Source: Patescibacteria group bacterium (GTDB taxonomy: Bacteria; Patescibacteriota; JAHJAL01). From it: 64,000 nucleotides of DNA. Location of the stretch: positions 15,093 to 79,092 of the forward strand of contig JBAZOB010000001.1 in NCBI GenBank assembly GCA_041648895.1, written 5' to 3'. The notes below the pieces were generated by a model, which made no database searches, was not told the DNA's origin, and worked only from the letters and a program-made list of their open reading frames with translations. Below are positions 1 to 15,212 of this stretch, in pieces (position 1 is the stretch's first letter; every line of letters begins with the position of its first letter). A program made the position numbers and the translations under genes.

Positions 1-382
1 CCAGGGCCGATTCGGCTTGGCCAATGGCGACAATAAAGCCCGGATTTACGTCTTGAACTTGGCCGGCGGTAGCAATGTCCACGCCATGCCCATAGAGACC
101 TGTTTCGCCCACTTGTGATTTGATGTATTCATCAATACAATTGCCAATCTCTTCGGTAGAAGGGGCATTTTCCGGATAGGTCAAATCGGCCTCGGCAGTG
201 GAACCGCCGGAACGTAGATTGTCTAGTTTATCCTGATTTTTGATGTTGAGAAAATAAAAAATCGCTCCCAAGGGTAGGAGCATCAGGGCCAAAGACAAGA
301 GCAGCATTAAACATGAACAAATACTACACCAGAGGCACCAGCGTTTTATTTCGTTACTGCTTTCTTGTTTCTCGTCAGCCAT
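1..382 (-). CDS. Partial CDS, 5' end only. N-terminally membrane-anchored hypothetical protein; the gene continues past the window start.
   Basis: Minus-strand ATG at about 380-382, read by hand as MADEKQESSNEIKRWCLWCSICSCLMLLLSLALMLLPLGAIFYF... with one hydrophobic helix. No stop before the window edge. It is not in the supplied ORF track because it is open-ended. Confidence 0.3.
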   Translation of the reverse strand, partial: MADEKQESSNEIKRWCLWCSICSCLMLLLSLALMLLPLGAIFYFLNIKNQDKLDNLRSGGSTAEADLTYPENAPSTEEIGNCIDEYIKSQVGETGLYGHGVDIATAGQVQDVNPGFIVAIGQAESAL

Positions 383-417
383 TTTTTTATTTGGAACTTT
401 TAATTAATTATTCTCTT

Positions 418-535
418 GTGTCATCCCCGCCTTGAGCGGGGACCTCATTATTAAGTTTTTGTAAACGCCTTGTTGATGAGATCCCCGATAGCCGGAGCTC
501 CGCCCTGGGCGGATTCCGGTCGGGGATGACATGAA
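418..535. repeat. GC-rich palindromic MITE/REP-like element, copy 1. Unit TGTCATCCCCGCCTTGAGCGGGGAYCTCAT plus inverted partner with an extra GC hairpin.
   Basis: Inverted repeats TGTCATCCCCGCC...GGCGGGGATGACA flank a spacer. The whole element is about 85% identical to the copy at 29294-29410. Confidence 0.8.
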
Positions 536-579
536 AGATAGTTAATTAGTAAAATTCATTATTTGTAATTCGTAATTTT

Positions 580-2421
580 TTACAAATTCCCGCGCATGGC
601 GATAATTTCCTCCGGGTTGGAGGTGATGAGACGGTGTTCGGTGTAGGAGGCAACGATTTTGATTAGAACGTGGTTGAGGCCGGCAAAGAAAATGCCTTCA
701 CCGACATTGGCTTCCAGCAGGGCCATTTTTTCACCGTCGGTCAGGTTAAATGTGCGGCCAATGAGGTCAATCGAGGCGGGGGATTGTTTGAGCAAAATCT
801 GCATGGCCGAGTTGGAGATCATGGCCTTGCCCCACTTGGAGCCCAAAAAGTCCTCCACGTCTTGGGAAATAGTGGTGACGCCCAGGTAGTATTTACGGGA
901 GCGTTTGGCCAGGTTGTGTAAGAAACGGGCGGAGTCTTCATATTGCATCAGGTTCCAGGCTTCGTCGATGACCATGATGCGGCGTTTTAACTGGGTGCGG
1001 ATTTTGGTCCAGATAAAGTTGGTGATAACGTACATGGCAATCGGGCGGAGTGATTCTTCCAGATCGCGCACGGAGAAGACAATGAAGTTGGCGGACAAGT
1101 CAATGTTGGTGGGGTTGTTTAAGAGGCCGGCGTAGGAACCTTCGGTGTATTTTTGCAAGCGCCGCGCCATGGATTCGGCGCCACTCATGTTCTCCAAGAC
1201 ATTGAATAAATCTTGCAATAGGGGCGGGGGATTTTTGTGAGAAGCCGCGTCTTCAGTAATGTCTTTGAGGGCGTAAGCTTCTTTGATGGCTTTGTCCATG
1301 ACGGCCGATTCTTCCGGAGTGAGTTGCCCGAGCATGATATTCATAATGCCGGAGATGGTGATAATGGCGGTGCGAAGAGCGTTTTCTTCTTCGCCGGCTT
1401 GGGTTTCGGGCAGTTCCAGGGGATTGATTTTACGGTCGGAATTGATGGAAATGGGGATATAGGTGCCGCCGACGGCTTCGCAGAGAGTTTGATATTCATT
1501 TTCCGGGTCGATGATAATGACGTTGGTACCCAGCATAAGATAGCGTAGGCATTCCAGTTTGACGGTGTAACTTTTACCGGCGCCGGAGGTGGCAAAAATG
1601 GTGCAGTTGGGATTGGGCAGGTCAAACCGATCAAAAATAATTAATGATTGATTGTGGCCGTTGAAGCCATAGAAAATACCGTTGTCGCTGGTTAGATCAA
1701 CCGAGGTGAAAGGAAAAGAAGTGGAAATGGCGTCGGTGTCCAGGTTACGGGTGATGTTTAATTCGTCGTTACCCAGGGGTAGGGTGCTGTTGAAACCGGG
1801 TTCTTGTTGGAGAATGGAATTTTTGGTGTAGATGAGAGAGCCGCCCAGGACAGTCTCCAGGTGGTCAATATTGGCTTTGAGTTCTTTTTCACTGTCGGCA
1901 TAGACGGTGAAATATAGTCCATAGAGAAATAGTTTTTCGCTGCCTTGTTGAATGCGATAACGCAATTCTTCGGCGTCCTGAATGGCGGTTTCCAGTTTGG
2001 GATCGGAAACTTCGCCTTTTTCGCGGCCAATGGCGTAGGTGGCCTGCATGCGCCCGACGCGATTGCGCAGGTCTTCCAGGACGGCTTTGGATTCCTGGGG
2101 GTAGATATACATGCTGATATCCATGGTGGCGTCGTAGGCAATGATCGGGGAAAGCCAGTTGGTGTTTAAAAAGCGGGGGTAGGTAAAAACAAACAGCGTC
2201 TGCACGTAGCTGTCGTTGATGATCAGATAGTTGGGGGTAATGCGAAAGGCGGAGGGAGCGACGATATCTTTGAGAGTGGTCATGCCTTCTTCAAAGACAC
2301 GTCGGGCTTCGGCCAGCCGTTTTTTTTCTTCTTCCAGCCGTTTCTTTTCTTCCATCGCGGCCACTTGAGCCGGATCAGTTGGCTTTTTTTTGAAAATGTT
2401 TATTTTGTCGAAAATGCTCAT
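580..2421 (-). CDS. virB4: VirB4/TrbE/CagE-family T4SS ATPase. This ORF carries the C-terminal ATPase portion, with the Walker A and B motifs.
   Basis: Walker A-like IFATSGAGKSYTVK and Walker B-like RRIMVIDEAWNLM. Overall TraC/VirB4 architecture; 613 aa. Confidence 0.8.
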   Translation of the reverse strand: MSIFDKINIFKKKPTDPAQVAAMEEKKRLEEEKKRLAEARRVFEEGMTTLKDIVAPSAFRITPNYLIINDSYVQTLFVFTYPRFLNTNWLSPIIAYDATMDISMYIYPQESKAVLEDLRNRVGRMQATYAIGREKGEVSDPKLETAIQDAEELRYRIQQGSEKLFLYGLYFTVYADSEKELKANIDHLETVLGGSLIYTKNSILQQEPGFNSTLPLGNDELNITRNLDTDAISTSFPFTSVDLTSDNGIFYGFNGHNQSLIIFDRFDLPNPNCTIFATSGAGKSYTVKLECLRYLMLGTNVIIIDPENEYQTLCEAVGGTYIPISINSDRKINPLELPETQAGEEENALRTAIITISGIMNIMLGQLTPEESAVMDKAIKEAYALKDITEDAASHKNPPPLLQDLFNVLENMSGAESMARRLQKYTEGSYAGLLNNPTNIDLSANFIVFSVRDLEESLRPIAMYVITNFIWTKIRTQLKRRIMVIDEAWNLMQYEDSARFLHNLAKRSRKYYLGVTTISQDVEDFLGSKWGKAMISNSAMQILLKQSPASIDLIGRTFNLTDGEKMALLEANVGEGIFFAGLNHVLIKIVASYTEHRLITSNPEEIIAMRGNL

Positions 2422-2440
2422 TGTTTATTTTTTATAATTA

Positions 2441-2508
2441 AAGGATCAAGTATCAAGGATCAAGTGCCAAGTGACTTGAAACTTGATCCTTGATACTTGA
2501 AACTTGAT
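2441..2508. repeat. ACTTGATCC/GGATCAAGT palindromic hairpin element with a 14-bp stem, lying between the two VirB4 halves.
   Basis: ATCAAGGATCAAGT ... ACTTGATCCTTGAT is a perfect inverted repeat. Related copies are at about 3226-3291 and 17803-17855. Confidence 0.75.
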
Positions 2509-2509
2509 G

Positions 2510-3241
2510 TTACTCTTCCTCCTGACTAAGGACACTGCCCACGATATCAGACGTGAGTGATTCAATTTTAAATAAACGTTGGTGGCGAGAGGTGAGGGGG
2601 TTGAAGTGAGCGTACATGAGTTCGGCAATTTCCTGGGTGGTGAGGGTGACGGCGCGTAGGCCCATGGAGCCAATACCATTGGAAATCAGGCCAATGCGTT
2701 CGTTGATTTTTTCTTTGGCTTGCTTGAATTCTTTGGCTTTAACTAATTGTTCATCTTGGCTGGGGAATAATTTTTGCCAAAAACCTTTGGCGGAAACATC
2801 GGGTGGATAGTAGGAAACGATGATAAAGAATTTTTTTTCCATGATGTTAGTAACTTGCAAGAGGCGCTGGATGAAGGAAATATATTCACTCATCTGCATG
2901 CGTAGCAGATCATTTTCTTGCTTGACTTCCAGGTCTTTGAGCTTGGCAATGTATTCGGATAGATCGAGTTTTTTGGATTGCACCACGATTTGGATGGGGA
3001 AGGGGAGGGAATTGAGAAAATTCTGATATTGATAGATAATGGCGTTTTGTTCCTGATCGGACTTCAGGTCAAAATTGATGGCGGAAGTCAGCAGCACACT
3101 GCGCAAGCTGCCATCTTTCATGATGACAAATCCATCGCGTATTTCCTGGAAAGGTAAATACTTTTGAGTGGAGCTTTTGGTGGTGTTTTTGGATTTTTTA
3201 AGTTTTGGTTTCACAATATTTATTAAAGGATCAAGTTCCAA
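2510..3241 (-). CDS. VirB4 N-terminal domain-like protein (CagE_TrbE_VirB region), apparently a separate ORF from the ATPase domain.
   Basis: QEIRDGFVIMKDGSLRSVLL...NFDL...SDQEQ resembles the start of the VirB4 N-terminal domain. 243 aa plus 613 aa is about full VirB4 length. The called start is TTG at 3241, inside the palindrome, so the start is uncertain. Confidence 0.45.
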   Translation of the reverse strand: MELDPLINIVKPKLKKSKNTTKSSTQKYLPFQEIRDGFVIMKDGSLRSVLLTSAINFDLKSDQEQNAIIYQYQNFLNSLPFPIQIVVQSKKLDLSEYIAKLKDLEVKQENDLLRMQMSEYISFIQRLLQVTNIMEKKFFIIVSYYPPDVSAKGFWQKLFPSQDEQLVKAKEFKQAKEKINERIGLISNGIGSMGLRAVTLTTQEIAELMYAHFNPLTSRHQRLFKIESLTSDIVGSVLSQEEE

Positions 3242-3291
3242 GGATCAAGTTTCAAGTCATTTGGCACTTGATTCTTGGTACTTGATACTTG
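3226..3291. repeat. ACTTGATCC-family palindromic element, copy 2.
   Basis: AAGGATCAAGTTCCAAGGATCAAGT...CACTTGATTCTTGGTACTTGATACTTG. It overlaps the putative TTG start of the upstream ORF. Confidence 0.65.
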
Positions 3292-4005
3292 TTATATTTG
3301 TTTCTGTTTATTTAAAATTTCCTCAATAGCGGCTTTTTTGGCATCTCCCATTTCTTTGAGCATGGTGGTGGTGTCGGTGGTGGCGGGTTTTTGGCGTTTG
3401 AACAAGCCGCCGATAATATTACCAATTCCATTACCGGTGGTGGTATCTTTGGGGGTGGGGATTTTGATTTCGGGAACGGCGGCGGTGGGAGTGGATAGAA
3501 CGGTAGCTTTTTTGACATTGGGTTGGGGACGGGTGGCGGGTTTATCTTGTTCGTGTTCGGTCATTTTTTGCCGGACGTCTTTTTCGGGTTCGATCTGGGT
3601 ATCGAGGATGAGGGAGAGTTGTTGTAATTGTGATTTGACTTCGCCGGGGTGACGGATAGCTTCTTTTTCCTTGGCTTTATCGGCTTTACTGGTTTGAGAA
3701 CTGAGTTCAAAAACGGGTGGTGGCTGCTGTTGCCAGAGCATGACTTTGGGGCTGGCCAAAAAGAGTAACAGGTTGGCGATAAATTTGGAAAAGGGCTGTT
3801 CGTTGACGGGTACAAAGGCAAAGGCGATGGCGACCAGGGCGACGGGGATGGACAAGGCGTAGAACAAATTGCCGTAACCGAAATATAGATACACCATATA
3901 TATTATAGCCGAGGCGAACAGTAGGTACAAAAATTGCTCCAAGGTCAGGGGACCAATAATTTGATCTGGCATCTTGATATTTTGGGGGACTTTGTATTGG
4001 AGCAT
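3292..4005 (-). CDS. VirB3/PrgI-like small membrane protein with a Pro/Thr-rich C-terminal tail.
   Basis: Two N-terminal hydrophobic helices (LYLLFASAIIYMVYLYF, ALSIPVALVAIAFAFV) sit immediately upstream of VirB4, as in Gram-positive-type T4SS. No sequence motif confirms the call. Confidence 0.35.
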   Translation of the reverse strand: MLQYKVPQNIKMPDQIIGPLTLEQFLYLLFASAIIYMVYLYFGYGNLFYALSIPVALVAIAFAFVPVNEQPFSKFIANLLLFLASPKVMLWQQQPPPVFELSSQTSKADKAKEKEAIRHPGEVKSQLQQLSLILDTQIEPEKDVRQKMTEHEQDKPATRPQPNVKKATVLSTPTAAVPEIKIPTPKDTTTGNGIGNIIGGLFKRQKPATTDTTTMLKEMGDAKKAAIEEILNKQKQI

Positions 4006-4053
4006 TTGTTTTTATTACGAATGACGAATTATGAGGAACTTGTAGGGGCGGGG

Positions 4054-6714
4054 TTACTTGATAAACATTGCTAGATATGGTTTGAGTTCGTCTAATACGC
4101 CTTGTTGAATTAATTTATTGCGAATTTCGATGCCAGATCTTTTATCGTCGATCATTTTTGCTACAACTGGGTTATTTTGTACAAACTCTTTTTTAAATTC
4201 TTTTGTAGTTTTTGTGTTATTGTCGAAGAAATATTCGACTCTTTTTTCGTGACTATCGGTTTGAAAATTGGTATTACCATCTACCACCTTAAAATTTTCA
4301 CCACCTTGATGATCTTTATAAATATTGTTTATGCCGTTGTAGATTATCTGTTCGGTTGAATTGGCTGATCCTCCATGTGGGGGGACAAAATTTCGTTCAT
4401 TGGTAGTGAAATAATTAGAATTTTGAACAGTATTTTGAACGGATTGTTTGGCTTCCCCCGTTCTTTTGATGGCTTCTTTTATTTGATAATTGACTATGTT
4501 GTTGTCTGGACTACTGATAGCGCCATTTTTGTCGGTGCTAATATCTTTCAACAATTCGTTGAGTTTTTCGGCCCCAGCGTTTCTGGCGATATCTTGTGCG
4601 TTTTTAATATCGCCACCAGGTCTGATTTCGTCCATGATGGCTCTTAACGCAGCGGCACTTAAGTTTCCATGAGCGACACCAAGACGTTCACTGTTAATTC
4701 TGATATTATTTTCAGCATTTGTCTTTATTGTGTTAAATAATTTATTTACGGTAGTAAAATGATTATTAGCGTTTGGTTCGGATTTGTTATAACTTTCGAA
4801 TGCTTTACTTACTAACTGGTCTCCATTGGGGGGTGGAGTTACTCCGAAATTGCCGGCAGCGGCGTTAGCATTTGAAGTTTTAGCAATATTGACTATATCT
4901 GTGTCACTGAGATTTAGGTCTTTGGGATTTTTGGCTACATCGAGTAATGTGCCCTGATTTTCGGGGTTACGTTTGGTTCCTTTGACATTCATATATTCAT
5001 CAAATTCAATACCATTGGCTGTCATGAGTTGACCAAGAAGTTTTTCACCCAAAGCTTTTCTTTCTGGTTTAGCATCGTTTAATGACATTTGTTTTAGGGC
5101 GCCGAACATATTACTCAGGTTTTCTTGAACAGCACCCTCAGTATTTTTGCCATTGATCAAATTGTTGAATCCGGCCGAGTGGTCTTTTTTTGTTTCGTCG
5201 AATGCTCGTTTAAACTGATCTTCGTCCCAACTGTTGTACATGACACTTTCCATGGATTTATCTCTTCGTCTGGCAACGTTTTTCATGTCGCCAAGTCTTT
5301 CTAACTCGGTCATGTTGTTGTATCGTGTGTCGGTGGCCAAGTTTTTTTCAGCTTGGAGTTTGGCGGCTTCTCTACCGGCTCGCAATTTACCAAGACCACC
5401 AAATATACCACGACCACCAAATAATGTTTTTCCTGCCCAGCTTTCAGGCATAGGGGTTCCTAATATTGGAACTTTCTTTGGGAATTTAATACCAGATTCG
5501 GCAAGATGTCCGGCTCCTTCCTTGATACCCATTTGTTCCCAACCATATCCGCCGGCTTTTTTTCCTAGGTTAGTAATACCTGTGATAAGTTGTTGGCCGA
5601 TACCGCCTAGTTGGAAGGGAAGCATGATGGCGGCGATCATGACGGCGACGCCGGCAACATATCTAATGGCGCCATAAATCCAGCTGGTTTCTTGATATCC
5701 GCTAACTGGTGCGGCATGAGCAATGTCAAATATATTAATGTGATGTAATAATGAAGAAGTAGTGGGGTAAGTGTATGTTTGGTCGCCGAATAAGGTGGCT
5801 AGATATAAGAGGAAGAATACGGCTGGAGCCAAAAATATCCAAGTGAATAATTGTTTTACATACGTTTCTCCAAAAGATCGGGTGGGAGGAAATGAGTAAA
5901 AAATAATGGCAATGGGGGCGATGGTGATCAAGATGAAGATAACCATATATCGAGCGAGAAAGACAAGTGAAAGGATAAATAGCAGTATTGTGGGGAGTAG
6001 ATATAAAATAAGGGCGCCAGTGACGACGGCTAGTATTATTATTCCTCCCCATGGGTTAGCGGCACCAGCGATACCGAGGCCCGCGATAGCCCCTATTGGC
6101 CAAAAAAATCCGAACCAATTTGCTAAAGCATCTCCAGTTTTAATAGCATTACCAGTGACAGGGTCAATGGCAAAATCCATACCAGTTGACAGTCTTATTA
6201 GTCGGCAAGCTAAACTGCAAGAGGGATCAGATATGTTGTGTAATAATTCGTTGACGAGTAGGTCGGAAAAATCAAGTAGAACGGATATAATTAGGAAACT
6301 TAAGTTAGCTAATACGAAGCCAGCGATTAGGGACGGCAGAGTTTTCTTAATTTCGTAGGTATTTATTTCCAGTCTGGTAGCGTTGGCAAAGGCGATGGCG
6401 ATTAAAAATAGAACGAAAAATATGTTGACGAAATATATAGAATATTGCCAGCCAGTTTGAAATGAGGTTATGCTGGTGTCGATGTGTGAGGTCCCATCTA
6501 ATAATCTGATGGCAACGTTTGTTAGCCAATAAAGAATATGAAAAACTAGAGCGGCTAGAGTGAAGATACCGTTGACAAGTGTATCTTGCCACCAACTACC
6601 ACCGGCTGCGGCTTGATCGGGAAAGTAGTCTTTCATGGTTGGAGTAGCTGAGATTATATGTATGGCTTGGGAAAAAGATGATTGAATTGTCGATAGGTCT
6701 AACAAATGTTCCAT
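4054..6714 (-). CDS. VirB6/TrbL-like polytopic membrane protein with a large hydrophilic C-terminal domain; paralog of 6755..9025.
   Basis: Multiple TM helices. The block GWQYSIYFVNIFFVLFLIAIAFANATRLEINTYEIKKTLPSLIAGF is shared with the next ORF. Position within the T4SS locus supports the call. Confidence 0.5.
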   Translation of the reverse strand: MEHLLDLSTIQSSFSQAIHIISATPTMKDYFPDQAAAGGSWWQDTLVNGIFTLAALVFHILYWLTNVAIRLLDGTSHIDTSITSFQTGWQYSIYFVNIFFVLFLIAIAFANATRLEINTYEIKKTLPSLIAGFVLANLSFLIISVLLDFSDLLVNELLHNISDPSCSLACRLIRLSTGMDFAIDPVTGNAIKTGDALANWFGFFWPIGAIAGLGIAGAANPWGGIIILAVVTGALILYLLPTILLFILSLVFLARYMVIFILITIAPIAIIFYSFPPTRSFGETYVKQLFTWIFLAPAVFFLLYLATLFGDQTYTYPTTSSLLHHINIFDIAHAAPVSGYQETSWIYGAIRYVAGVAVMIAAIMLPFQLGGIGQQLITGITNLGKKAGGYGWEQMGIKEGAGHLAESGIKFPKKVPILGTPMPESWAGKTLFGGRGIFGGLGKLRAGREAAKLQAEKNLATDTRYNNMTELERLGDMKNVARRRDKSMESVMYNSWDEDQFKRAFDETKKDHSAGFNNLINGKNTEGAVQENLSNMFGALKQMSLNDAKPERKALGEKLLGQLMTANGIEFDEYMNVKGTKRNPENQGTLLDVAKNPKDLNLSDTDIVNIAKTSNANAAAGNFGVTPPPNGDQLVSKAFESYNKSEPNANNHFTTVNKLFNTIKTNAENNIRINSERLGVAHGNLSAAALRAIMDEIRPGGDIKNAQDIARNAGAEKLNELLKDISTDKNGAISSPDNNIVNYQIKEAIKRTGEAKQSVQNTVQNSNYFTTNERNFVPPHGGSANSTEQIIYNGINNIYKDHQGGENFKVVDGNTNFQTDSHEKRVEYFFDNNTKTTKEFKKEFVQNNPVVAKMIDDKRSGIEIRNKLIQQGVLDELKPYLAMFIK

Positions 6715-6754
6715 ATTTTATATAAATATTATTTTTATGAAAAAAATTATTTAA

Positions 6755-9025
6755 TTACGCGGTATTGATTGGTGGAACGGTGTTGTATTTGGGGATGGTG
6801 GTGGAGACGGGGCGGGGAGTGGAGGTGGCGGTGGTGGCGGAAGATGGGGCGGAGGATGGGGTGGCGTCGAGGCCTTTTTGGACGGTGGTGGAAATGTTTT
6901 GGCTAGAAGTAAGTTGAGTGGTGATCTGGTTGAGAGTGGTTAGGGTTTGATAGTTATTGTTGGTTTGCTGGCCTTGTTGGATGAGTTGTTTGAGTTCGGG
7001 GCTAGAGGCGGCGTCAATGGCGGCCTTGATGTCGCCATTGCGGACGCTGGTCATGATGCCGCGGACGTTATCGGCGCTAATATTAGGGTTGTTTTTAATA
7101 ATTTGAGTAGCTTGTTGAGAACCTTTGGATTGAATATCACGGTTGTAGCTGACCAGGTCATTGAGGCTTTGGAGTTTGACACCCTCACCGGTGGTGATAT
7201 TGGCGGCGCTAATGTTGGAGTCATATTGGTTGCGAACTTCGACGGGGATAGATTGAATGATTTTATTGGTTTCGGCCGGAGTTTTGGCGTCAGCCAGAGC
7301 AGCAACGGTGGAGCGGTCGGAAACATAACTGGCGACATTGAATTGAGGGGGAGTGCCACTGGTGAGCTGGTCAACGGCCACGCCCATTTTTTGACTTAAT
7401 TCGTTGCCTTTCCATTCAATCTTTTGGCCGGTACCAGTGCCGGCGCCACCGCCGCTGCCAGTATTGCCAGCACCTCCGGCACTGCCCGCGGCAAGAGGAC
7501 TTATTTTATTTTTTGATGCTTGGGTTTTATCTTTTCTCTGGGCTTCCGCGCCAATTTGTTTAGCTTTTTCGCGCCAGGCGTTGAGCCGTTTTTGGTATTC
7601 CTGGAAAGATCTGGTGAGAGGGTTATTGCGGTCTTGGTTTTTATTTTGTGGTTCTTCGGTCATTACCTCAGCTTCTTTTTCAGTTTTATTAAATCCAGCG
7701 ATGAATTTATTTGACTGGGTTTCGGGAGTGTTTTGGTTGGCGAGCGAAGTGCCGCCGCCGGTGGGGCCAATATAGTTGCCTTGTTCATCAATATTTGTTA
7801 AAGCGGTGCGGGGGAAAGTTGGGGGAGGAGCGACAGTTCCGGTTGATTGTGGGGGCACGCCCCCGCCAATACCACGGGTCATGGGATTGTTGCCGCCGAG
7901 TAGATTGGTGACGGCGCGGAGGGGATTTTGTCCGTAGAGCGGAGCCATCATCAGGTAGCTGGTGATTTGCTGGCCGAAGCTGGAAAGGGATAGGGGGATA
8001 AAAATAGCGAATAAAAGGACAAAAATGCCGGACATGTAGCTGACAATTGTTTGGGTAAAATCATTGTCATTGACGTCGACAGTGGGAGAAAAAATGGTCG
8101 AGAGACCGAGGATAAAAAATATAATGGGCAGGATAAAATTCCAGGTGAGGAAGTAGTTGAGCCATTTTTCGCCAATGGCTTTGGAGGGGGGAAAGAAAAG
8201 TAAGATAATGCCCAGTGGGGCCAGGACGATCAGAATGTACAGGATGATATTGCGGATGATGCTGACAAACGCCAGGACGATAATGGCCAGACAGGGCAAA
8301 GAGTAAAAAAAGGCGGCGATAAGTAAATTGATGATCAGTTTCAGTTCAGCCAGTTCGGCTTCGTCGCCGATGTTGTTTACTGCCAATACGATGGTATTTA
8401 GATCGGTGGAGCTGAAACGGTCGATAAAAGCATTGAGCATGTTGGTATTGGTACCGCTTAAGTCAATACCGATGGTCGTATTTAGTACTTTGTTGATGAT
8501 ATCTCCGCCGAAGATGGTATTGAGTTCAACAATCATCAAGTCGCCAACATCGAGCAGAGCTTTGCAGAGCAATAGACTAAAGTTGGCAATAATGAAGCCG
8601 GCAATCAGGGCAGGCAGAGTTTTTTTGATGGCATAGGTTTCAATGTTCAGGCGCAGGGCGTTGGCCAGAGCAATGGCAATCAGGACAAATATGGCGATAA
8701 TGTTGACAAAGAAAATGGCGTAACCCCAACCGGTTTCCAGCTGGTTGTTTTCCAGGCTGACGTACTGTGAATTTTCCACCACATTGGCGGCCAGTTTGGA
8801 GAAGGTGCCAAGGATACTGAGCCAGCTGATAATTTGTTGGGCAATGGCTTGGGCCAGGGAGGAAATGTGTTCTAAATCTTCGATGTCAAACATCTCAGCA
8901 AATCGCAGCAGGATTTTGCTGAGATTGGAATCTTCCGCCAGGTAACCAATGGCATAAAAACTACTGAGTAGGATTGACGACATTATAGAGATGGCTACAA
9001 TGAATAAATCATAATATTGTACCAA
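6755..9025 (-). CDS. VirB6/TrbL-like polytopic membrane protein, paralog 2, with a Gly/Thr/Pro-rich C-terminal region.
   Basis: ETGWGYAIFFVNIIAIFVLIAIALANALRLNIETYAIKKTLPALIAGF is paralogous to 4054..6714. The called start is TTG at 9025; an in-frame ATG at about 8983 is an alternative. Confidence 0.5.
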   Translation of the reverse strand: MVQYYDLFIVAISIMSSILLSSFYAIGYLAEDSNLSKILLRFAEMFDIEDLEHISSLAQAIAQQIISWLSILGTFSKLAANVVENSQYVSLENNQLETGWGYAIFFVNIIAIFVLIAIALANALRLNIETYAIKKTLPALIAGFIIANFSLLLCKALLDVGDLMIVELNTIFGGDIINKVLNTTIGIDLSGTNTNMLNAFIDRFSSTDLNTIVLAVNNIGDEAELAELKLIINLLIAAFFYSLPCLAIIVLAFVSIIRNIILYILIVLAPLGIILLFFPPSKAIGEKWLNYFLTWNFILPIIFFILGLSTIFSPTVDVNDNDFTQTIVSYMSGIFVLLFAIFIPLSLSSFGQQITSYLMMAPLYGQNPLRAVTNLLGGNNPMTRGIGGGVPPQSTGTVAPPPTFPRTALTNIDEQGNYIGPTGGGTSLANQNTPETQSNKFIAGFNKTEKEAEVMTEEPQNKNQDRNNPLTRSFQEYQKRLNAWREKAKQIGAEAQRKDKTQASKNKISPLAAGSAGGAGNTGSGGGAGTGTGQKIEWKGNELSQKMGVAVDQLTSGTPPQFNVASYVSDRSTVAALADAKTPAETNKIIQSIPVEVRNQYDSNISAANITTGEGVKLQSLNDLVSYNRDIQSKGSQQATQIIKNNPNISADNVRGIMTSVRNGDIKAAIDAASSPELKQLIQQGQQTNNNYQTLTTLNQITTQLTSSQNISTTVQKGLDATPSSAPSSATTATSTPRPVSTTIPKYNTVPPINTA

Positions 9026-9111
9026 ATTTCTTCCCTATCTGTCAAGGTTTATGATTTTTAAATTACCTTATTTTCAATTAAATAGATTATATATTAACAA
9101 GCGGGGGGAAT

Positions 9112-9280
9112 AATTACAAATTAATGGGTTGTACTTATTAGTCATTTCCCCTGTCATCCCCGCCTTGAGCGGGGATCTCATATGTAACGCGTTTATTACA
9201 GTCTTGATGATGAGATCCCCGCTCAAGGCGGGGATGACATATAAAGAGATTAATTCAGACTACTCATTAATTTGTAATTT
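9112..9280. repeat. GC-rich palindromic MITE-like element, copy 2, with AATTACAAAT heptamer-repeat arms.
   Basis: AATTACAAATTAATGGGT ... TGTCATCCCCGCCTTGAGCGGGGATCTCAT - spacer - ATGAGATCCCCGCTCAAGGCGGGGATGACA ... ACTCATTAATTTGTAATT. The outer arms are also inverted repeats. Confidence 0.8.
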
Positions 9281-9322
9281 TATTTATCAATAAAAACAGT
9301 CTCCTGTTTTTAAGGAGACTGT
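9280..9322 (-). terminator. Rho-independent terminator downstream of pilin 9349..9693.
   Basis: ACAGTCTCCT-GTTTTTA-AGGAGACTGT forms a 10-bp stem. On the minus strand it is followed by a TTTTATT tract. Confidence 0.6.
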
Positions 9323-9348
9323 AATGAAAAATATGTGCTTATTTATTA

Positions 9349-9693
9349 CTACCCTCGTCGGATTTCATCAATAATGTAACTTACGATCAGGCTGGCAGAG
9401 ACGATCAGGATGAGGCCGATGACTGACCAGGTGATGGTACTGATGGCTTTTTTGGATTCTTCTGGATTGCCGGTGGCGGTGATGTATTTGTAGCCACCAA
9501 TGATGGCAAAAGCGACCGCAATTAGTCCGGACAGTACAGTGGCCACATTGATCAATGTGCCGAGAAAATCATAGATAGTCACATTTTCGTCCAGTGGATT
9601 GAGTTTTTTTAATTGATCAGCAAAATTGAGGGCAAGTATTGGCCACGGCGTTTGAGCAAGAAAATCGGCGAGCGAATTTATTGGTGGCAACAT
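9349..9693 (-). CDS. TrbC/VirB2-like T4SS pilin of the CPR-type T4SS_pilin family, paralog 1.
   Basis: Family motif IIGGYKYITATGNPEESKKAISTITWSVIGLILIVSA follows an N-terminal hydrophobic leader. Confidence 0.7.
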   Translation of the reverse strand: MLPPINSLADFLAQTPWPILALNFADQLKKLNPLDENVTIYDFLGTLINVATVLSGLIAVAFAIIGGYKYITATGNPEESKKAISTITWSVIGLILIVSASLIVSYIIDEIRRG

Positions 9694-9733
9694 GATATAA
9701 TATTACTTCTTAATTTGGCAGAGGGGCTTCGCG

Positions 9734-10114
9734 TTACTGATTCTCATCTACAACTGTATCTATTAGTTCTGTTCCGGGCAGAGCATTTTGAACTGTGACA
9801 ACAATGGCGTAGGCAGCAAAGATAACAACTAGACCAATAACGGCGTTGAGCAAGGTTTTGGTGGCTTTTTTATTTTGTTCTTCATTACCGCCGGCGGTAA
9901 TGTAGTTGAAACCGCCAATAATGAGGTAGATTACGGCTACCAAACCAGCGGCGCCCAGGATGTAGTTAATAACAGTGAAGGCAAATGTTTCTGCCGTGCC
10001 TTTGAAACCCATAAAAGTGCTGGTGGCGGTGGCGGCATTGGCAGCTAGTGTGCAGTAGACCATTGTATAGGCGGTCAAACCAGCGGCGCTGATTTTTTTG
10101 GCCAGTTTACTCAT
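9734..10114 (-). CDS. TrbC/VirB2-like T4SS pilin paralog 2.
   Basis: IIGGFNYITAGGNEEQNKKATKTLLNAVIGLVVIFAAYAIVVT, with a signal-peptide-like N-terminus. Confidence 0.7.
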   Translation of the reverse strand: MSKLAKKISAAGLTAYTMVYCTLAANAATATSTFMGFKGTAETFAFTVINYILGAAGLVAVIYLIIGGFNYITAGGNEEQNKKATKTLLNAVIGLVVIFAAYAIVVTVQNALPGTELIDTVVDENQ

Positions 10115-10150
10115 AGTTTTTACTCCAAAAAATTATTTAATAATTACAAA

Positions 10151-10528
10151 TTAAAAGGGCCAGGTGCTTGATTGATAGTTAATGGCGTTTTCGATGGAAA
10201 CTTTGATGGCATAGGCGGCGAAAACGACCAGGAGGCCAATGACGGCGAAGGTGAGGGTTTTGGTGGCTTTTTTGTGGGTTTCTTCGTTGCCGGCGGAGGT
10301 AATGTATTGAAACCCGCCGAGGATAATAAAGACAACGGAAACGAGGCCGGCGATACTCAGGGCGTAATTGATGATGGCCATTATCAGGTCGACAGCATTG
10401 TCAAAAGGTAGGGGATTGTCGGGGGTAACGACATTAATTTCCGGTGGGGCAGCCAATATTTTTGGTGGATGCCACATGACCAGGCTGGTAAAAATAAAAG
10501 ACAGGATTGTGTGGTTTATTTTTTTCAT
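10151..10528 (-). CDS. TrbC/VirB2-like T4SS pilin paralog 3.
   Basis: ILGGFQYITSAGNEETHKKATKTLTFAVIGLLVVFAAYAIKV, with a signal peptide. Confidence 0.7.
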   Translation of the reverse strand: MKKINHTILSFIFTSLVMWHPPKILAAPPEINVVTPDNPLPFDNAVDLIMAIINYALSIAGLVSVVFIILGGFQYITSAGNEETHKKATKTLTFAVIGLLVVFAAYAIKVSIENAINYQSSTWPF

Positions 10529-10614
10529 GAGGGAAATATTCGCTGGTCAATTATTAATATATTATGAATAATTACAAATTACAAATGGTATAGATGGTGT
10601 GTTAATTTCTGTTG

Positions 10615-10643
10615 TGTCATCCCCGCTCAAGGCGGGGATGACA
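10615..10643. repeat. Solo GC-rich palindrome TGTCATCCCCGCTCAAGGCGGGGATGACA, a half-unit of the MITE-like family.
   Basis: Perfect 12-bp inverted repeat between pilin genes. Confidence 0.8.
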
Positions 10644-10649
10644 AAGAAG

Positions 10650-10988
10650 TTATTGTTCAATTTCTAATACGAGTTTCAGCGTTTCCAAAATGGTAGCGGC
10701 GGCGAGGACGATGACAAAGCCAATGATGGCATTGGTGATAGATTTTTGTCCTTCTTTGATTTTTTCTTCGTTACCGCCGGAAGTGATATATTTGTAGCCG
10801 CCAAAAATCAGGTAGGCAATCATGATCAGGCCGGCAAAGTAGTAGGCCCAGGTGAAGAGAGCAAAAATTAACTCTTCGACCGAGGCAAAATTACTGAGGG
10901 GATTAAGGCGATCGGGGAGGAGACTTCTTAATTGTTGCATGATGTCATCAGCGGCGGTAAAGGTGATTGGTTTGAATATTTGGTTCAT
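10650..10988 (-). CDS. TrbC/VirB2-like T4SS pilin paralog 4.
   Basis: IFGGYKYITSGGNEEKIKEGQKSITNAIIGFVIVLAA. Confidence 0.7.
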   Translation of the reverse strand: MNQIFKPITFTAADDIMQQLRSLLPDRLNPLSNFASVEELIFALFTWAYYFAGLIMIAYLIFGGYKYITSGGNEEKIKEGQKSITNAIIGFVIVLAAATILETLKLVLEIEQ

Positions 10989-11055
10989 TATCGATAATTA
11001 ATTACAAATTACAAATTTAGTTTGCCATCCTGAATATTAATAATACTTATAGTCA

Positions 11056-11454
11056 TTAATAATTTACCCTATCTAAATCCACCGTGGTGATTTCTTGGAG
11101 GAAGGTTTGGACAATGAGGTAGGCGATGATGGCGACTACGAAGCCAATGATGGCCCAAGTCAGGGTGTTTTTGGCGGCGGTGGCTTGTTCTTGATTGCCT
11201 TTGCTGTAGATTAGTTTGATGCCTCCCCAAATAATAAATATGACGGCGACCAATCCGGCCAGACCGATCAAGTTACTACCGATATAGATAACAAAACGCA
11301 GAATGTCTTCAAATGTGATTTTTTGGGCTTCATGGCCGAAGTCGAAGCCGAATAATTTCAGATTGTCGGCGGCCAAAACTTTTTGGGGGAGGAATGTTAT
11401 TAACAACCCGATGGTGGAGGTAAATGGTAGGAGTTTTTTGGTGATATTTTTCAT
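11056..11454 (-). CDS. TrbC/VirB2-like T4SS pilin paralog 5. Start trimmed to the internal ATG (MKNITKK...) to remove the overlap with the upstream pilin.
   Basis: IWGGIKLIYSKGNQEQATAAKNTLTWAIIGFVVAIIAYLIV. The tracked ORF 11056..11532 overlaps the next gene by 74 nt. Confidence 0.6.
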   Translation of the reverse strand: MKNITKKLLPFTSTIGLLITFLPQKVLAADNLKLFGFDFGHEAQKITFEDILRFVIYIGSNLIGLAGLVAVIFIIWGGIKLIYSKGNQEQATAAKNTLTWAIIGFVVAIIAYLIVQTFLQEITTVDLDRVNY

Positions 11455-11458
11455 AAAA

Positions 11459-11839
11459 TTATTGTCCCACCCCGATCCAGGTTTGGATGGTGCTGATGAT
11501 AACGACGCCGGAAAGGGCAATGATAAAGCCAATGATGGCGTTGACGAGAGATTTTTTGCCTTGTTCGACTTGTTGTTCGTTGCCCTGGGCGGTGACTAAA
11601 AGGTAACCGCTGTAGATAATAAAGCCAATGGCGACAAAGCCGGCCAGGGAAAGCGCGAAGCCGATTATACGCAGAAGAATGGGAGCGAGCATTTCGAATA
11701 GATTACCGTCATAGTTAATATCAAGTCCACTGGTAAAATCTTTGATGTAGTCTCGGGCGAATACTTTTTGGGGGAGGGAGGAGATTAGAAGTCCGAGGGT
11801 TGATATTAGTTGTAGGGATTTTTTTTGGATAGACGGCAT
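11459..11839 (-). CDS. TrbC/VirB2-like T4SS pilin paralog 6.
   Basis: IYSGYLLVTAQGNEQQVEQGKKSLVNAIIGFIIALSGVVII, with a signal peptide ending SLPQKVFA. Confidence 0.65.
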   Translation of the reverse strand: MPSIQKKSLQLISTLGLLISSLPQKVFARDYIKDFTSGLDINYDGNLFEMLAPILLRIIGFALSLAGFVAIGFIIYSGYLLVTAQGNEQQVEQGKKSLVNAIIGFIIALSGVVIISTIQTWIGVGQ

Positions 11840-11890
11840 AAATTAAGAATGAAGAATTAGATACTACTGATGTTTGAGAAAAAAGATATT

Positions 11891-12292
11891 TTATAGTTCT
11901 AGACCATGTTCGATAATTTCGTGTCGATCGCGATTATCCGTTTCAACTGTGCTGCTGGTGGGGGCGGGGTTGTTGATGATTTGGGGGGAAATGATGCGGA
12001 GGACAGTGTAGGCAAGTACCAATAATGCCAGGGAGACGAGGGCGGAGATGATGGTGCCGCGGCCTTTGTTGATCATGTCGGGATTGCCCTGGGAAATAAT
12101 CATGGTGTAACCACCGATTACTATCATGATAATCGAAACAGCGGCGATAAGCCAGATGGCATAGATATAAAAATCACTGACATAATCGGCCAGAGAAGTG
12201 TAGTTGCTGGTGCTTTCATTGATGGGAGCGCGGACGTCAACGCTACCATCGACGGCCAGCCAAGTTAGACTTTGGTAGAGTAAATTGATCAT
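11891..12292 (-). CDS. TrbC/VirB2-like T4SS pilin paralog 7, divergent.
   Basis: IGGYTMIISQGNPDMINKGRGTIISALVSLALLVLAYTVL. The ATGA start/stop overlaps the upstream SBP gene. Confidence 0.55.
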   Translation of the reverse strand: MINLLYQSLTWLAVDGSVDVRAPINESTSNYTSLADYVSDFYIYAIWLIAAVSIIMIVIGGYTMIISQGNPDMINKGRGTIISALVSLALLVLAYTVLRIISPQIINNPAPTSSTVETDNRDRHEIIEHGLEL

Positions 12293-13626
12293 AATTGTTC
12301 TTCTTTGGCCTTGAGCATAATGTCGGAAATATCATTTTGAGCTTTATTGATGGCTTCTTCGGAGGGGATGTTGTTGATGGCCACGTCGTCAATCATTTGC
12401 GTAAAAATGGCGTCAACGCGGTTGGCGTCAATTTTATAGAAGGATTTGGCATAGTAGGCTTGTCTGTCGAAGATAATACTGGAGCTTTGGGCGGTGGATT
12501 TAAGTGAAGTTGGTTTTTTGGTGCGAGTGGTATATATGCCGTTTTCGGCGGTATATTTGAGGAAATCCCAGGCCCAAGCCGCGTTTTTACTTTGTAAACT
12601 AACCGTTTCTCCCCAATAGTTGGCGTAGCTTACCGGGTCGTCAGTGGTAAAAAGTTGGGGCAGGTTGGTGACTTCATAATGGACGTCGGGGTCTTTGAAT
12701 TTATCAATAATTGGTATTTGATAAGCATAGTTAATAGTCATGGCGCTAAGTCCTTTTTCGAAGGACTCAATTGAACCCAACATGGATGGATTCCAGGTGT
12801 AGTTGGTGTTGGCGGGATCGGCAAAACTGGTGTAGAAATCAAGTGAACTTTCACCCGGATAGAAATTTTCGCCGGTGGGAGTCTTGGTGGGTAGAGCAAA
12901 GGAAGAGGTGGTGTTGTCCGGTGAAGTCATGACAGTCCCATTTTGTAGCATCAGGGCGTATAAAATATCGGAGGCGCGGTTAATATTGTTGGCGGTGCCC
13001 ATGGTAATACCGGCCAGATCAACATTGTTGCCTTGTTTAACGGTTAAGGTTTGGGAGTATTCTTCGAGTTGTTCCCAGGTGGCGGGAGGGGAAAAATAAT
13101 TTTGATCTTTGAGTAACTCTTCATTGTAGAAAAGCGCCAAGGTATCTACATAGAGGGGAATAGCATAGGCTTTTTCCTGAAAAATGAAATCTTCGGCAGC
13201 GACCGGGACAAATGTTTCTTGGTATTTATCGACAGTCATGATTTCCTCGGGAATGGGGGAGATGATTTCCCAGTATTTGGGTAGCCAGTCATTATGAATT
13301 TGAAAAATGTCCGGTCCTTTGCCGGCGGCCAGGGCTTTAATCAGTTTTTCTTCGTAATTATTGAAATCAACTTTTTTGTACTCAATGTTGATGGTGGTGT
13401 TGGACTGTTTATCCCATAATTTACTATAAGCATCAATCGTAGTTTGCAAAGTTTCGCGATCATCAAAAAGCCGCCAGACGGTGAGGTTGACTTCGGTGGG
13501 GCAGGGTTTGGTGGGACAGAGTGGATCGGGGGGAGTGGTATTCTCTTGCTCACAACCGGAGAGAGTGGTGGCGGCGAGAAAAATGGTGAGAATTAATAGT
13601 TGGGGGAGTTTTTTTAGTTGGTTCAT
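12289..13626 (-). CDS. Extracellular solute-binding lipoprotein of the ABC sugar/oligosaccharide SBP family 1.
   Basis: Lipobox LSGC follows a hydrophobic leader. Length of about 445 aa, aromatic-rich, with the typical SBP_bac_1 profile. Confidence 0.6.
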   Translation of the reverse strand: MNQLKKLPQLLILTIFLAATTLSGCEQENTTPPDPLCPTKPCPTEVNLTVWRLFDDRETLQTTIDAYSKLWDKQSNTTINIEYKKVDFNNYEEKLIKALAAGKGPDIFQIHNDWLPKYWEIISPIPEEIMTVDKYQETFVPVAAEDFIFQEKAYAIPLYVDTLALFYNEELLKDQNYFSPPATWEQLEEYSQTLTVKQGNNVDLAGITMGTANNINRASDILYALMLQNGTVMTSPDNTTSSFALPTKTPTGENFYPGESSLDFYTSFADPANTNYTWNPSMLGSIESFEKGLSAMTINYAYQIPIIDKFKDPDVHYEVTNLPQLFTTDDPVSYANYWGETVSLQSKNAAWAWDFLKYTAENGIYTTRTKKPTSLKSTAQSSSIIFDRQAYYAKSFYKIDANRVDAIFTQMIDDVAINNIPSEEAINKAQNDISDIMLKAKEEQL

Positions 13627-14486
13627 TATATTTTTAACGATTTTAAATATTTAACAAAGTCTTTTCTCAGGTCAGGCCGGTCGAGGGCGAATTCGACGGT
13701 GGTTTGGAGGTAGTTGAGGGGGTCACCGGTGGTGTGCCATTTGCCTTTGATGGGAGTGGCGATGTAGGATTTGATTTGATTGTGAATACGCATGGCGTCA
13801 GGCAGATGAATTTCATTGTTGATACCCGGTTTGGTTTTAGCCAAGATGGAAAATATTTCCGGCTCCAGAACTAAACGGCCGATGCTGGCCAGGTTGGATG
13901 GAGCTTGGGCCGGGTCGGGTTTTTCAATGATGTCTTCGACAAAATAGATATCTTTTTCTTTTTTGCCTTTGATTATTCCATATTTATTAGTTTCATCATG
14001 AGGCACGGGGACGACGGCCAGGACGGAGGTTTGGTATTGCTCGTACAGTTCACAAATGTCACCGATGCAAGATTTTTTGGATTGGACGAGATCATCACCA
14101 TAGAGAACGGCGAACGGTTCGTTGCCCACAAAGGTGCGGGCTTGCAAGACGGCGTGACCGAGACCGAGGATTTCTTTTTGACGGATGTAGTGGATATTGG
14201 CTAGTTTTTCGATGCGCTGCAATTCTTTCAATAAACTTTCTTTACCTTTTTGTTTGAGGGTGTAGTTGAGTTCGAAAGACTGGTCAAAATGATCCTCAAT
14301 GGCTCTTTTACCGCGGCCGGTAATGATCAGAATTTCTTCAATACCGGCGTCAACGATTTCTTCGACAATATATTGAATAACCGGTTTATCGATCACCGGG
14401 ATCATTTCTTTGGGCATGGCTTTGGTGGCGGGCAGAAAACGAGTGCCAAAACCGGCGGCGGGGATGATGGCTTTTTTTATTTTCAT
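13626..14486 (-). CDS. galU: UTP--glucose-1-phosphate uridylyltransferase.
   Basis: N-terminal KAIIPAAGFGTRFLPATKAMPKEMIPVIDKPVIQYIVEE is the GalU signature. 286 aa. Confidence 0.85.
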   Translation of the reverse strand: MKIKKAIIPAAGFGTRFLPATKAMPKEMIPVIDKPVIQYIVEEIVDAGIEEILIITGRGKRAIEDHFDQSFELNYTLKQKGKESLLKELQRIEKLANIHYIRQKEILGLGHAVLQARTFVGNEPFAVLYGDDLVQSKKSCIGDICELYEQYQTSVLAVVPVPHDETNKYGIIKGKKEKDIYFVEDIIEKPDPAQAPSNLASIGRLVLEPEIFSILAKTKPGINNEIHLPDAMRIHNQIKSYIATPIKGKWHTTGDPLNYLQTTVEFALDRPDLRKDFVKYLKSLKI

Positions 14487-14489
14487 TGG

Positions 14490-14942
14490 TTAAAGGGTTT
14501 TGATTTTCAACGTTTTTGTTTGTACCGACTTGGCTTTGGGTACGCAAATGGTAAGCATGCCGTCTTTGAAAGTGGCGGCGGCATTTTCGGAATCGACGGA
14601 GGTGGGGAAGTTAATTTGGCGCGTGAAAGACCCCCAGTAACATTCTTGCAGGTGGTAGATTCGATCGTCCAGATCGGTGTCTTTTTGTCTTTTGCCGCGA
14701 ATGGCAATAAAATCGTCGTTGAGTTCAATTTCAATATCGTCGGCGACCACGCCGGCGGCGGGAGCGATAATGTAATAGCTATTATTTTTTTCGTACATGT
14801 CGACGATCAATTGTCCTTCTTCATCATCGTCTGATTGGTGATTGCTGGTCTGGTCGGATTTGAATTGGCTGGGATTCCAATTGGCGGAAAGTAGTTTTTG
14901 TAAGGTTTTTAGCGTACTTGATTTTTCTTCAGTCTGTTTCAT
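14490..14942 (-). CDS. Hsp20/alpha-crystallin family small heat-shock protein.
   Basis: Alpha-crystallin domain IAIRGKRQ...GSFTRQINFPTSVDSENAAATFKDGMLTICVPKAK. Confidence 0.75.
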   Translation of the reverse strand: MKQTEEKSSTLKTLQKLLSANWNPSQFKSDQTSNHQSDDDEEGQLIVDMYEKNNSYYIIAPAAGVVADDIEIELNDDFIAIRGKRQKDTDLDDRIYHLQECYWGSFTRQINFPTSVDSENAAATFKDGMLTICVPKAKSVQTKTLKIKTL

Positions 14943-15030: not shown

Positions 15031-15212
15031 TACGAATTATGAATTAACGAGTGGTGTTAATTAATAACTTGATCCACCTACATATGTCATCCCCGCCTTG
15101 AGCGGGGATCTCATTATCAAGACTGCAATATATACGTTACATATGAGATCCCCGCTCAAGGCGGGGATGACAGATAAAGAGATTAATTCATATAACTCGT
15201 TAATTCGTAATT
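15031..15212. repeat. GC-rich palindromic MITE-like element, copy 3 in inverted orientation, with ACGAATTATGAATTAACGAGT arms.
   Basis: TGTCATCCCCGCCTTGAGCGGGGATCTCAT ... ATGAGATCCCCGCTCAAGGCGGGGATGACA. The spacer is the reverse complement of the copy-2 spacer. It lies in the divergent region between Hsp20 and the amidase gene. Confidence 0.8.

Follow-up and report, generated by a model that had tools for sequence, protein, structure and literature searches.

A gene cluster in a 64,000-nucleotide stretch of DNA from a Patescibacteria group bacterium (GenBank assembly GCA_041648895.1, contig JBAZOB010000001.1, positions 15,093 to 79,092 of the forward strand; hereafter the window) very probably encodes a chromosomal type IV secretion system (T4SS) of the Patescibacteria clade. 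This system would be derived from the monoderm conjugation machinery of mating-pair-formation (MPF) class FATA and would serve as a pilus or conduit to a host bacterium, not for plasmid DNA transfer. The cluster belongs to a run of minus-strand genes that spans the first 15 kb of the window in the list of open reading frames (ORFs). In the direction of transcription, this run encodes HSP20, a GalU-type protein, a solute-binding protein, seven pilins, two VirB6-like proteins (virB6b followed by virB6a), a PrgI-type VirB3, a TrsD-like protein, VirB4, and a cell-wall hydrolase. All 12 reading frames of the cluster in the window are intact and tightly packed. A preliminary description of this DNA, made from the letters alone, had proposed a T4SS locus, and this was borne out by family assignments from Pfam, NCBIfam and the PDB. 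The features of the Patescibacteria-clade T4SS were found here: an MPF-FATA-like VirB4, an adjacent TrsD, PrgI/VirB3 and VirB6, a pilin array, a chromosomal location, and no relaxase. The locus is a typical further example of this published system.

The VirB4 ATPase is a protein of 613 amino acids (580-2421, minus strand) that comprises the second N-terminal subdomain and the P-loop ATPase domain. It was matched by the Pfam families PF19044 P-loop_TraG (2.9e-31) and AAA_10, and it passed the NCBIfam equivalog NF045971, 'VirB4-like conjugal transfer ATPase, CD1110 family', with 382 bits against a cut-off of 325. The ATPase domain aligned with Thermoanaerobacter VirB4 (PDB 4ag5, 1.4e-47), the best solved relative. 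The NF045971 score and the 4ag5 match both point to kinship with MPF-FATA. Homologues of the 613-residue protein are 590-700 amino acids long and cover 92-100% of the query. The gene for a TrsD-like or 'TraC-like' protein of 234 amino acids (2510-3214, minus strand, counted from an ATG) lies 88 nt upstream of virB4; the ORF as listed begins at a TTG at 3241 and is 243 amino acids long. No match was found in the local Pfam copy, which is without PF26593, the 'TraC-like' family named in the precomputed annotation. The TrsD model NF041427 aligned end to end (2.8e-10, 40 bits, under the curated cut-off of 200), and the ORF also matched the N-termini of four full-length VirB4 models in NCBIfam.

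The two ORFs occupy successive, non-overlapping segments on all three of the full-length NCBIfam VirB4 models compared, so that the smaller one reads as a free-standing first N-terminal subdomain. On the CD1110 model (752 positions) the 234-residue ORF covers positions 2-119 and the 613-residue ORF positions 173-730; the corresponding segments are 91-233 and 292-892 on the Mbov_0397 model (894 positions), and 4-166 and 245-726 on TIGR00929 (792 positions). A profile of the 613-residue ORF was collinear with residues 446-733 and, weakly, 305-376 of TrwK, the VirB4 protein of R388. Homologous loci from other genomes are referred to here as L002 to L007. The TrsD-like gene is separate in L002-L006, with spacers of 88-350 nt, and the homologues listed among the 588 detected are free-standing proteins of ~200-380 amino acids. 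The two-ORF VirB4 is thus an old, conserved arrangement of the TrsD/TrsE type, and neither a frameshift nor a disruption; the small gene is reported to correspond to TrsD/TrsE of pGO1 (PMC12102498). The preliminary description had called VirB4 split into an N-domain ORF and an ATPase ORF. The split and the serial placement stand on three models, but the ATPase ORF retains part of the N-terminal region.

The 234-residue ORF was at first taken for a parallel paralog of the N-domain because AlphaFold2 (AF2) models of both ORFs matched TrwK. The top 14 PDB matches were all TrwK/VirB4 of R388 for the TrsD-like model (pLDDT 78.6), and likewise for a model of residues 1-262 of the 613-residue ORF. 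This reading was withdrawn on the serial placement by the NCBIfam models and is retained as a minor rival, an unlikely one, in which the ORF would be a duplicated N-terminal domain of an already complete VirB4 and not half of a split gene. The order of strands and helices is similar in the two AF2 models, and pairwise BLAST aligned residues 65-122 with 74-132 at an E-value of 0.038. However, the TraC-like profile was non-significant against VirB4 (hmmsearch E 0.17; hhalign probability 0.3%). Foldseek gave no target ranges, and the two models may match different parts of the long N-terminal region of TrwK. The TraC-like profile also had no match among PDB sequences. A hairpin between the trsD-like gene and virB4 (2422-2509), with a ~20-bp outer stem, a small inner stem, -37.7 kcal/mol and a z-score of -9, was considered as a regulatory element and rejected, as the structure is not conserved in relatives.

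Further components of the membrane machinery lie upstream of the two VirB4 ORFs. The PrgI/VirB3-like protein (3292-4005, minus strand, 237 amino acids) was matched by PF12666 PrgI at 6.7e-8, with 33.4 bits against a cut-off of 27, confirming the VirB3-like gene of the preliminary description; its hydropathy profile indicates two membrane helices at the N-terminus with a long hydrophilic tail after them. The extended VirB6-like protein a (4054-6714, minus strand, 886 amino acids) scored 23.8 bits with PF04610 TrbL (4.4e-5), just under the cut-off of 25.9, and carries TrbL_3 as its precomputed annotation. Hydropathy places ~7 membrane helices in residues 46-367, followed by a hydrophilic C-terminal region of ~500 amino acids. 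The extended VirB6-like protein b (6755-9025, minus strand, 756 amino acids as an ORF) passed the same TrbL cut-off with 38.9 bits (1e-9), and TrwI/VirB6 was matched in the PDB at an E-value of 0.01. Translation probably begins at the ATG at 8983, since the ORF as called takes in the -10 box of the promoter-like site described below. Across 331 membrane-domain residues the two proteins are 30% identical (E 2e-43), with unrelated C-terminal halves. The TrbL matches and the shared membrane domain agree with the two VirB6-like paralogs that had been proposed.

The gene directly after virB4, beginning 198 nt downstream of it, encodes a multi-domain, membrane-anchored peptidoglycan hydrolase of the M23 type. 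Its start (1-382, minus strand) is cut by the window edge. It is complete, at 564 amino acids, in a public contig (L001) that was retrieved with the VirB4 protein as query, is 100% identical to positions 1-6716 of the window, and adds 8.5 kb past the left edge. The hydrolase was matched by PF01551 Peptidase_M23 (1.4e-19) and by NCBIfam M23 endopeptidase models, and would supply the VirB1-type function. Every gene type in the earlier parts list was confirmed, but this hydrolase, with its VirB1-type function, had been overlooked. An Rfam scan gave no match in the T4SS region.

The seven small ORFs upstream of virB6b all exceeded the gathering cut-off of the pilin family PF18895 (26.6 bits), with scores of 32-55 bits, in a profile search proposed beforehand, which supports the earlier assignment of seven VirB2-like pilins. 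All are on the minus strand. The first in the array and the most divergent is p1 (11891-12292, 133 amino acids; 9.8e-8, 32.4 bits). It is followed by p2 (11459-11839, 126 amino acids; 1.3e-9) and p3 (11056-11454, 132 amino acids from the ATG at 11454; 3.3e-12), the latter listed as an ORF that starts at an upstream TTG within p2. Next are p4 (10650-10988, 112 amino acids; 1.8e-14), p5 (10151-10528, 125 amino acids; 6.5e-11) and p6 (9734-10114, 126 amino acids; 1.2e-12), and the last is p7 (9349-9693, 114 amino acids; 1.2e-14). Only p6 passed the TrbC/VirB2 model PF04956 (32.1 bits against a cut-off of 27.9), the other six having 17-23 bits or no match. The NCBIfam model NF045849, 'Mbov_0395 family pilin-like', was passed by p7 (49.6 bits against a cut-off of 40) and approached by p5 (37.7 bits). 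No match was obtained when a profile of the seven pilins was compared by sequence with solved structures.

A Kyte-Doolittle scan indicated two hydrophobic helices in each pilin, with a conserved GN-x-E...K loop between them. The motif GG(Y/F)xYIT(A/S)xGNxE...KKA, previously ascribed to all seven, is literal in three or four of them; what is invariant (7/7) is a core of G-x7-GN. The leaders, judged by eye, are of two kinds. In p2, p3, p5 and p6 a basic n-region, a hydrophobic core and an A-x-A-like site form a Sec-type signal peptide, so that the expected cleavable signal peptides are classical in four of the seven. The leaders of p1, p4 and p7 are short and uncharged and end in L-A, as they do in the orthologues of these three, and in p7, as in the other two, a classical signal peptide is lacking.

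The core domains of the paralogs are 21-58% identical (mean 34%). The pilins are collinear, one to one, with orthologues in L003, which has eight pilins, and in L005, where six are visible at the locus edge; both relatives hold extra copies of the p5/p6 type. Orthologues at each position share 41-83% core identity, compared with 85-91% for VirB4 of the same two loci. Because each position has a collinear orthologue in the relatives, the seven pilins appear to be old paralogs in a fixed order that evolve fast, and not recent copies. The gene-for-gene conservation of paralog order favors specialised, fast-evolving subunits, and the pattern leans towards these over simple antigenic switching, without proof of either. 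The seven pilins, probably non-interchangeable, are most likely specialised subunits or host-range variants. A more speculative proposal, held tentatively, is that a fixed set of specialised pilins with two leader types forms a heteromeric pilus or conduit, that two different extended VirB6 proteins make up the heteromeric channel on which it stands, and that fast change at each position tracks host surfaces. If true, a filament of heteromeric pilins would be a T4SS principle unlike that of single-pilin conjugative pili. In L003 (180-2529), the p1 and p2 orthologues form the C-terminal ends of ORFs of 482 and 315 amino acids whose upstream parts are rich in Pro, Gly and Thr; these ORFs may represent fusions of a large N-terminal extension to a pilin domain, or over-extension by the gene caller.

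The pilin genes and the machinery genes are probably separate transcription units, as suggested by a terminator-like hairpin after p7 and a promoter-like site before virB6b. The hairpin (9296-9322, minus strand), a 10-bp stem with a T run located 27 nt past the p7 stop, resembles an intrinsic terminator and is the best such structure on the minus strand. The sigma-70-like site (9016-9045, minus strand) reads TTGACA-18-TACAAT with a TG extension and has 11 of 12 consensus matches. It is one of the two best promoter-like sites, the other being located before HSP20; weaker sites of the TTGTAA type precede p4 and p5. From these consensus sites, the pilin array may form a separate unit of higher output. 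The stop codon of the solute-binding-protein gene overlaps the p1 start by 4 nt (ATGA), suggesting co-translation of that protein with the pilin array.

Two kinds of intergenic repeat were also observed. The hairpin repeat ATCCCCGCCTTGAGCGGGGAT occurs in seven copies (423-443, 9156-9176, 9215-9235, 10619-10639, 15089-15109, 15148-15168 and 29299-29319), with none expected by chance, and segments of the T4SS operon have copies at their flanks. In two places (9150-9240 and 15085-15170) two copies lie in inverted orientation, 59 nt apart, and their matching arms are longer; these pairs look like a small element of the miniature inverted-repeat transposable element or repetitive extragenic palindrome type. 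The tandem heptamer motif TTTGTAATTTGTAATTA has 18 matches where 1.4 would be expected, all of them between genes and within the native part of the window, where GC content is higher. Its matches include 562-578, 10141-10157, 10569-10585, 10999-11015, 23587-23603, 23797-23813 and 27453-27469, with others up to 33 kb, and it is present in the spacers before p4, p5 and p6. The spacers before virB4 in relatives (L003-L006) contain different heptamer or octamer tandem repeats in a similar style (TTGGAAA, TTGAAAT, CTTGATA). Repeats of this type could be promoter or regulator sites.

The nearest VirB4 homologues are all from Patescibacteria, the closest being 84-92% identical and from metagenome-assembled genomes (MAGs) named 'Patescibacteria group'. 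Identity is 57-60% to VirB4 of Berkelbacteria, Kazan and CPR3, ~55% to that of a Saccharibacteria MAG (L006), and about 50% to that of Peribacteria. The order pilins, VirB6, PrgI, TrsD-like protein, VirB4 is common to L003, L004, L005 and the Saccharibacteria MAG. In the Peribacteria loci no TrsD, PrgI or VirB6 is adjacent, and two or three pilins lie 6-9 kb away on the opposite strand, a layout that agrees with published class-level differences (PMC12102498). Two VirB6 genes are present only in the window and in L005, with one in L003, L004 and L006, so the VirB6 duplication appears limited to this sublineage among the loci compared.

The same operon continues after the hydrolase in L001 (8044-15183) with two conserved proteins without family assignment. 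The first, of 496 amino acids, is membrane-anchored with weak similarity to TolB/DPP-IV propellers, and the second, of 1874 amino acids, is Asn- and Thr-rich with an acidic low-complexity N-terminus. Neither had a significant match in the PDB or Pfam. Both occur downstream in L005 and L007, as does the M23 hydrolase, and are conserved there at only 38-41% identity; they are candidate surface or effector components.

A mechanism can be proposed from T4SS biology, namely the structures of R388 and pKM101, and by analogy with the genetics of the epibiont Southlakia. A VirB4 hexamer, completed by the TrsD-like subunit, would dock on PrgI and VirB6 in a single membrane. Powered by ATP, it would pull pilins out of this membrane and build a pilus or conduit by polymerising them, for which the M23 hydrolase would open the cell wall. 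The filament or conduit would then contact the host bacterium and move proteins or other cargo, and not plasmid DNA. In Southlakia, the cluster SEML1_0006-0019, pilin series included, is essential for epibiotic growth; it is akin to Gram-positive conjugative T4SSs and is without recognisable coupling or relaxase proteins (Wang et al. 2023, PMC10633639). The preliminary description had favored host attachment or DNA uptake over classical conjugation. By this analogy, a non-classical system for host interaction agrees with the published work (PMC10633639, PMC12102498), while DNA uptake is disfavored by Wang 2023 (PMC10633639).

As an alternative, the cluster would be an uptake machine of the ComB or Ced kind that brings in host DNA or nucleotides. 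Auxotrophy is probable in this organism, as in other Patescibacteria, no export-specific coupling protein is encoded nearby, and VirB4 has weak NCBIfam matches to the archaeal DNA-import ATPases CedB (2.9e-8) and CedD (2.6e-7). These matches are far under cut-off, however, and reflect only the generic ATPase fold. According to the Southlakia study (PMC10633639, summarised in PMC12857230), competence there relies on ComEC and type IV pili; comEC can be deleted without loss of viability, but the T4SS is essential, a contrast that leaves DNA uptake highly unlikely.

Genes for a conjugative system were sought with Pfam scans of window ORFs of at least 110 amino acids and of three genes beyond the left edge in L001. 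As previously claimed for the window, no relaxase, type IV coupling protein (T4CP), VirB8, VirB9, VirB10 or VirB11 was found, either in the 64 kb or in the adjoining 8.5 kb on the left. There was no convincing Walker A motif in the unassigned ORFs. A VirB8-like protein (PrgL/TcpC/TraM) had no Pfam match and the gene packing leaves no space for one inside the cluster; the 496-residue downstream protein is not NTF2-like by sequence. Within the sequence scanned, the locus thus appears to fail the defining features of a conjugative element (relaxase, T4CP, VirB8-like protein). A complete conjugative set just outside the window, named beforehand as the observation that would make this an ordinary integrative and conjugative element (ICE), was not found within -8.5 kb to +50 kb. 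The chance that the cluster is the mating-pair-formation module of such an ICE, with relaxase and coupling protein outside the sequence examined, is put very low. VirB4 does pass the equivalog for conjugal transfer ATPases of the CD1110 family, three genes of the source contig lie beyond L001 (locus tag WC570_00040), and a large serine recombinase, the only recombinase found in the window, is encoded at 34245-35768. Yet 72 kb were scanned without a relaxase or T4CP, and the recombinase is part of a low-GC defence island that is separate from the cluster, 22 kb away and beyond dnaG and rpoD. The same cluster recurs in conserved order among relatives, and in a published survey a relaxase was present in only 103 Patescibacteria genomes, and near virB4 in only 15 of these (PMC12102498).

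The setting of the cluster is read as chromosomal because it is flanked by housekeeping genes (HSP20, GalU, CTP synthase, DnaG, RpoD, and rRNA and tRNA methyltransferases) and is continuous with them in GC content and GC skew, which also speaks against an ICE. That it could be a decaying, non-functional remnant is hardly credible: VirB8-like and T4CP genes are absent from the cluster and VirB6a falls just under the Pfam cut-off, but 12 of 12 reading frames are intact and closely packed, the orthologues are conserved in order in several species, the Walker-type P-loop domain of VirB4 aligns end to end with 4ag5, and the homologous cluster is essential in Southlakia (PMC10633639). Several points weigh against the reading of a functional host-directed pilus or conduit. 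Three of the seven pilins are without a Sec signal peptide recognisable by eye, the channel model is incomplete in that it has no VirB8-like component, and the proposed promoters and terminator are no more than consensus matches. The functional assignment is an analogy with a relative, Southlakia, and does not come from this locus. Finally, the scan spanned -8.5 kb to +50 kb, and many Patescibacteria keep VirD4 homologues far from virB4 (PMC12102498).

The minus-strand run is headed by the gene for HSP20 (14490-14942), followed by those for a nucleotidyl transferase of the GalU type (13626-14486) and for a sugar-type solute-binding protein (12289-13626; SBP_bac_1, weak MalE/GanS similarity), an orphan in that no permease or ATPase gene lies nearby. 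GC skew on the plus strand is unusually strong and uniform across the 64 kb (+0.10 to +0.46), whichever strand codes, and the T4SS operon is read on this basis as lagging-strand. A replication origin adjoins the cluster in some genomes according to the literature; when one was sought here, GC skew kept the same sign throughout the window and the 8.5 kb that L001 adds leftward. Divergent from this run, three large plus-strand genes (15098-23013) encode proteins that are probably secreted and cell-wall-active: one with Amidase_2 and Ig-like domains (900 amino acids), an anthrax-lethal-factor-like metalloprotease (675 amino acids), and one with SpoIID and Ig-like domains (732 amino acids). These three are candidates for acting on the host envelope.

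A low-GC island (31-39%) at 34210-56000 adjoins tRNA-Asn and is headed by the serine recombinase. It also contains type III restriction-modification Mod and Res genes (40188-45219), a viperin-like radical SAM gene (50869-51885), and genes for an HKD+Snf2 helicase, DUF4391, DUF3800 and an APH-type kinase. The region is probably a defence island acquired by integration; a search for att-type direct repeats of tRNA-Asn at its borders gave none. Between 51884 and 55802, successive small genes are separated by recurring intergenic elements (families D1-D3, D5 and D7; 24-83 nt) that contain inverted repeats, at about 51.9, 52.9, 53.8 and 55.7 kb, and the arrangement resembles a cassette array. Adjoining the DUF3800 gene, at 53703-53772, is a DUF3800-IX RNA (Rfam RF02968, 62 bits).

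Insofar as the gene set, the pilin arrays and the absence of a relaxase have all been published, the locus offers no new principle. As an example it is clean and complete, and it comes from a lineage far removed from Saccharibacteria. What it adds is position-specific pilin conservation, two leader classes, a lineage-specific VirB6 duplication, and the predicted separate transcription of pilins and machinery. These four details could guide the choice of subunits to delete or image in tractable relatives. The Patescibacteria T4SS is among the few molecular handles on how ultrasmall epibionts exploit their hosts. It is the only T4SS reported to be essential for its own carrier bacterium.

Comparison with published systems places the cluster closest to that of Southlakia epibionticum ML1 and to the Patescibacteria clade in general. 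A survey by Quinonero-Coronel et al. 2025 described a Patescibacteria VirB4 clade related to MPF-FATA, with TrsD adjoining virB4 in 1,664 cases and PrgI/VirB3 and VirB6 near (PMC12102498). The same survey reported 441 VirB2 arrays, of 2-11 genes each and ~25% identical on average, and found relaxases to be very rare in Patescibacteria (PMC12102498); a 2025 review restates this picture (PMC12857230). The present locus shares with these systems a chromosomal MPF-FATA-like VirB4 with an adjacent TrsD homologue, PrgI/VirB3, VirB6, hydrolase genes directly after virB4, a divergent VirB2-like array, and a cluster without relaxase or T4CP. It differs from Southlakia in having seven pilins instead of six, and it has two extended VirB6 proteins where the close relatives L003 and L004 have one. 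Essentiality is established for Southlakia only (PMC10633639).

The monoderm conjugative MPF-FATA systems compared are trs of pGO1 (TrsC/TrsD/TrsE), CTn2 (CD1110 family) and prg of pCF10 (PrgI, PrgH, PrgJ). The likeness lies in a VirB4 that passes the CD1110 equivalog, a separate TrsD-type protein as in pGO1, a PrgI-family VirB3, and a peptidoglycan hydrolase gene dedicated to the system. A relaxase, a T4CP and VirB8-like proteins are part of those systems, which have surface adhesins in place of VirB2 pilins (PMC12102498); the window is without relaxase, T4CP and VirB8-like genes and has seven pilins. The Mycoplasma element, a conjugative ICE by the names of its NCBIfam models, resembles the locus in that p7 passes the Mbov_0395 model and the TrsD-like ORF matches the N-terminus of the Mbov_0397 VirB4 model NF045975, on which VirB4 itself scores 278 bits, below the cut-off of 590. 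The Mycoplasma ICE carries a single pilin-like gene. The p7 match indicates that a pilin of the PF18895 type beside an MPF-FATA-like VirB4 is not confined to Patescibacteria, a point not stressed in PMC10633639 or PMC12102498.

More distant systems share individual features. In the rvh system of Rickettsiales (Rickettsia, Anaplasma), too, several extended VirB6 paralogs whose hydrophilic extensions are large stand in tandem, VirB2 is present as multiple divergent paralogs, and the bacterium is host-dependent with a reduced genome (PMC12102498). The rvh system is, however, a diderm MPF-T system with VirB7-11 and VirD4 that targets eukaryotic cells and has no TrsD or PrgI, and the resemblance is convergent. 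R388 Trw and Agrobacterium VirB, also of the MPF-T class, share the VirB4 (TrwK) fold, the weak VirB6 (TrwI) match and the TrbC/VirB2 Pfam match of p6. They differ in having a single VirB4 of 823 amino acids, an outer-membrane core complex, VirB5, VirB8, VirB11, VirD4, and one pilin gene, compared with the two-part VirB4 and seven pilins of the Patescibacteria locus.

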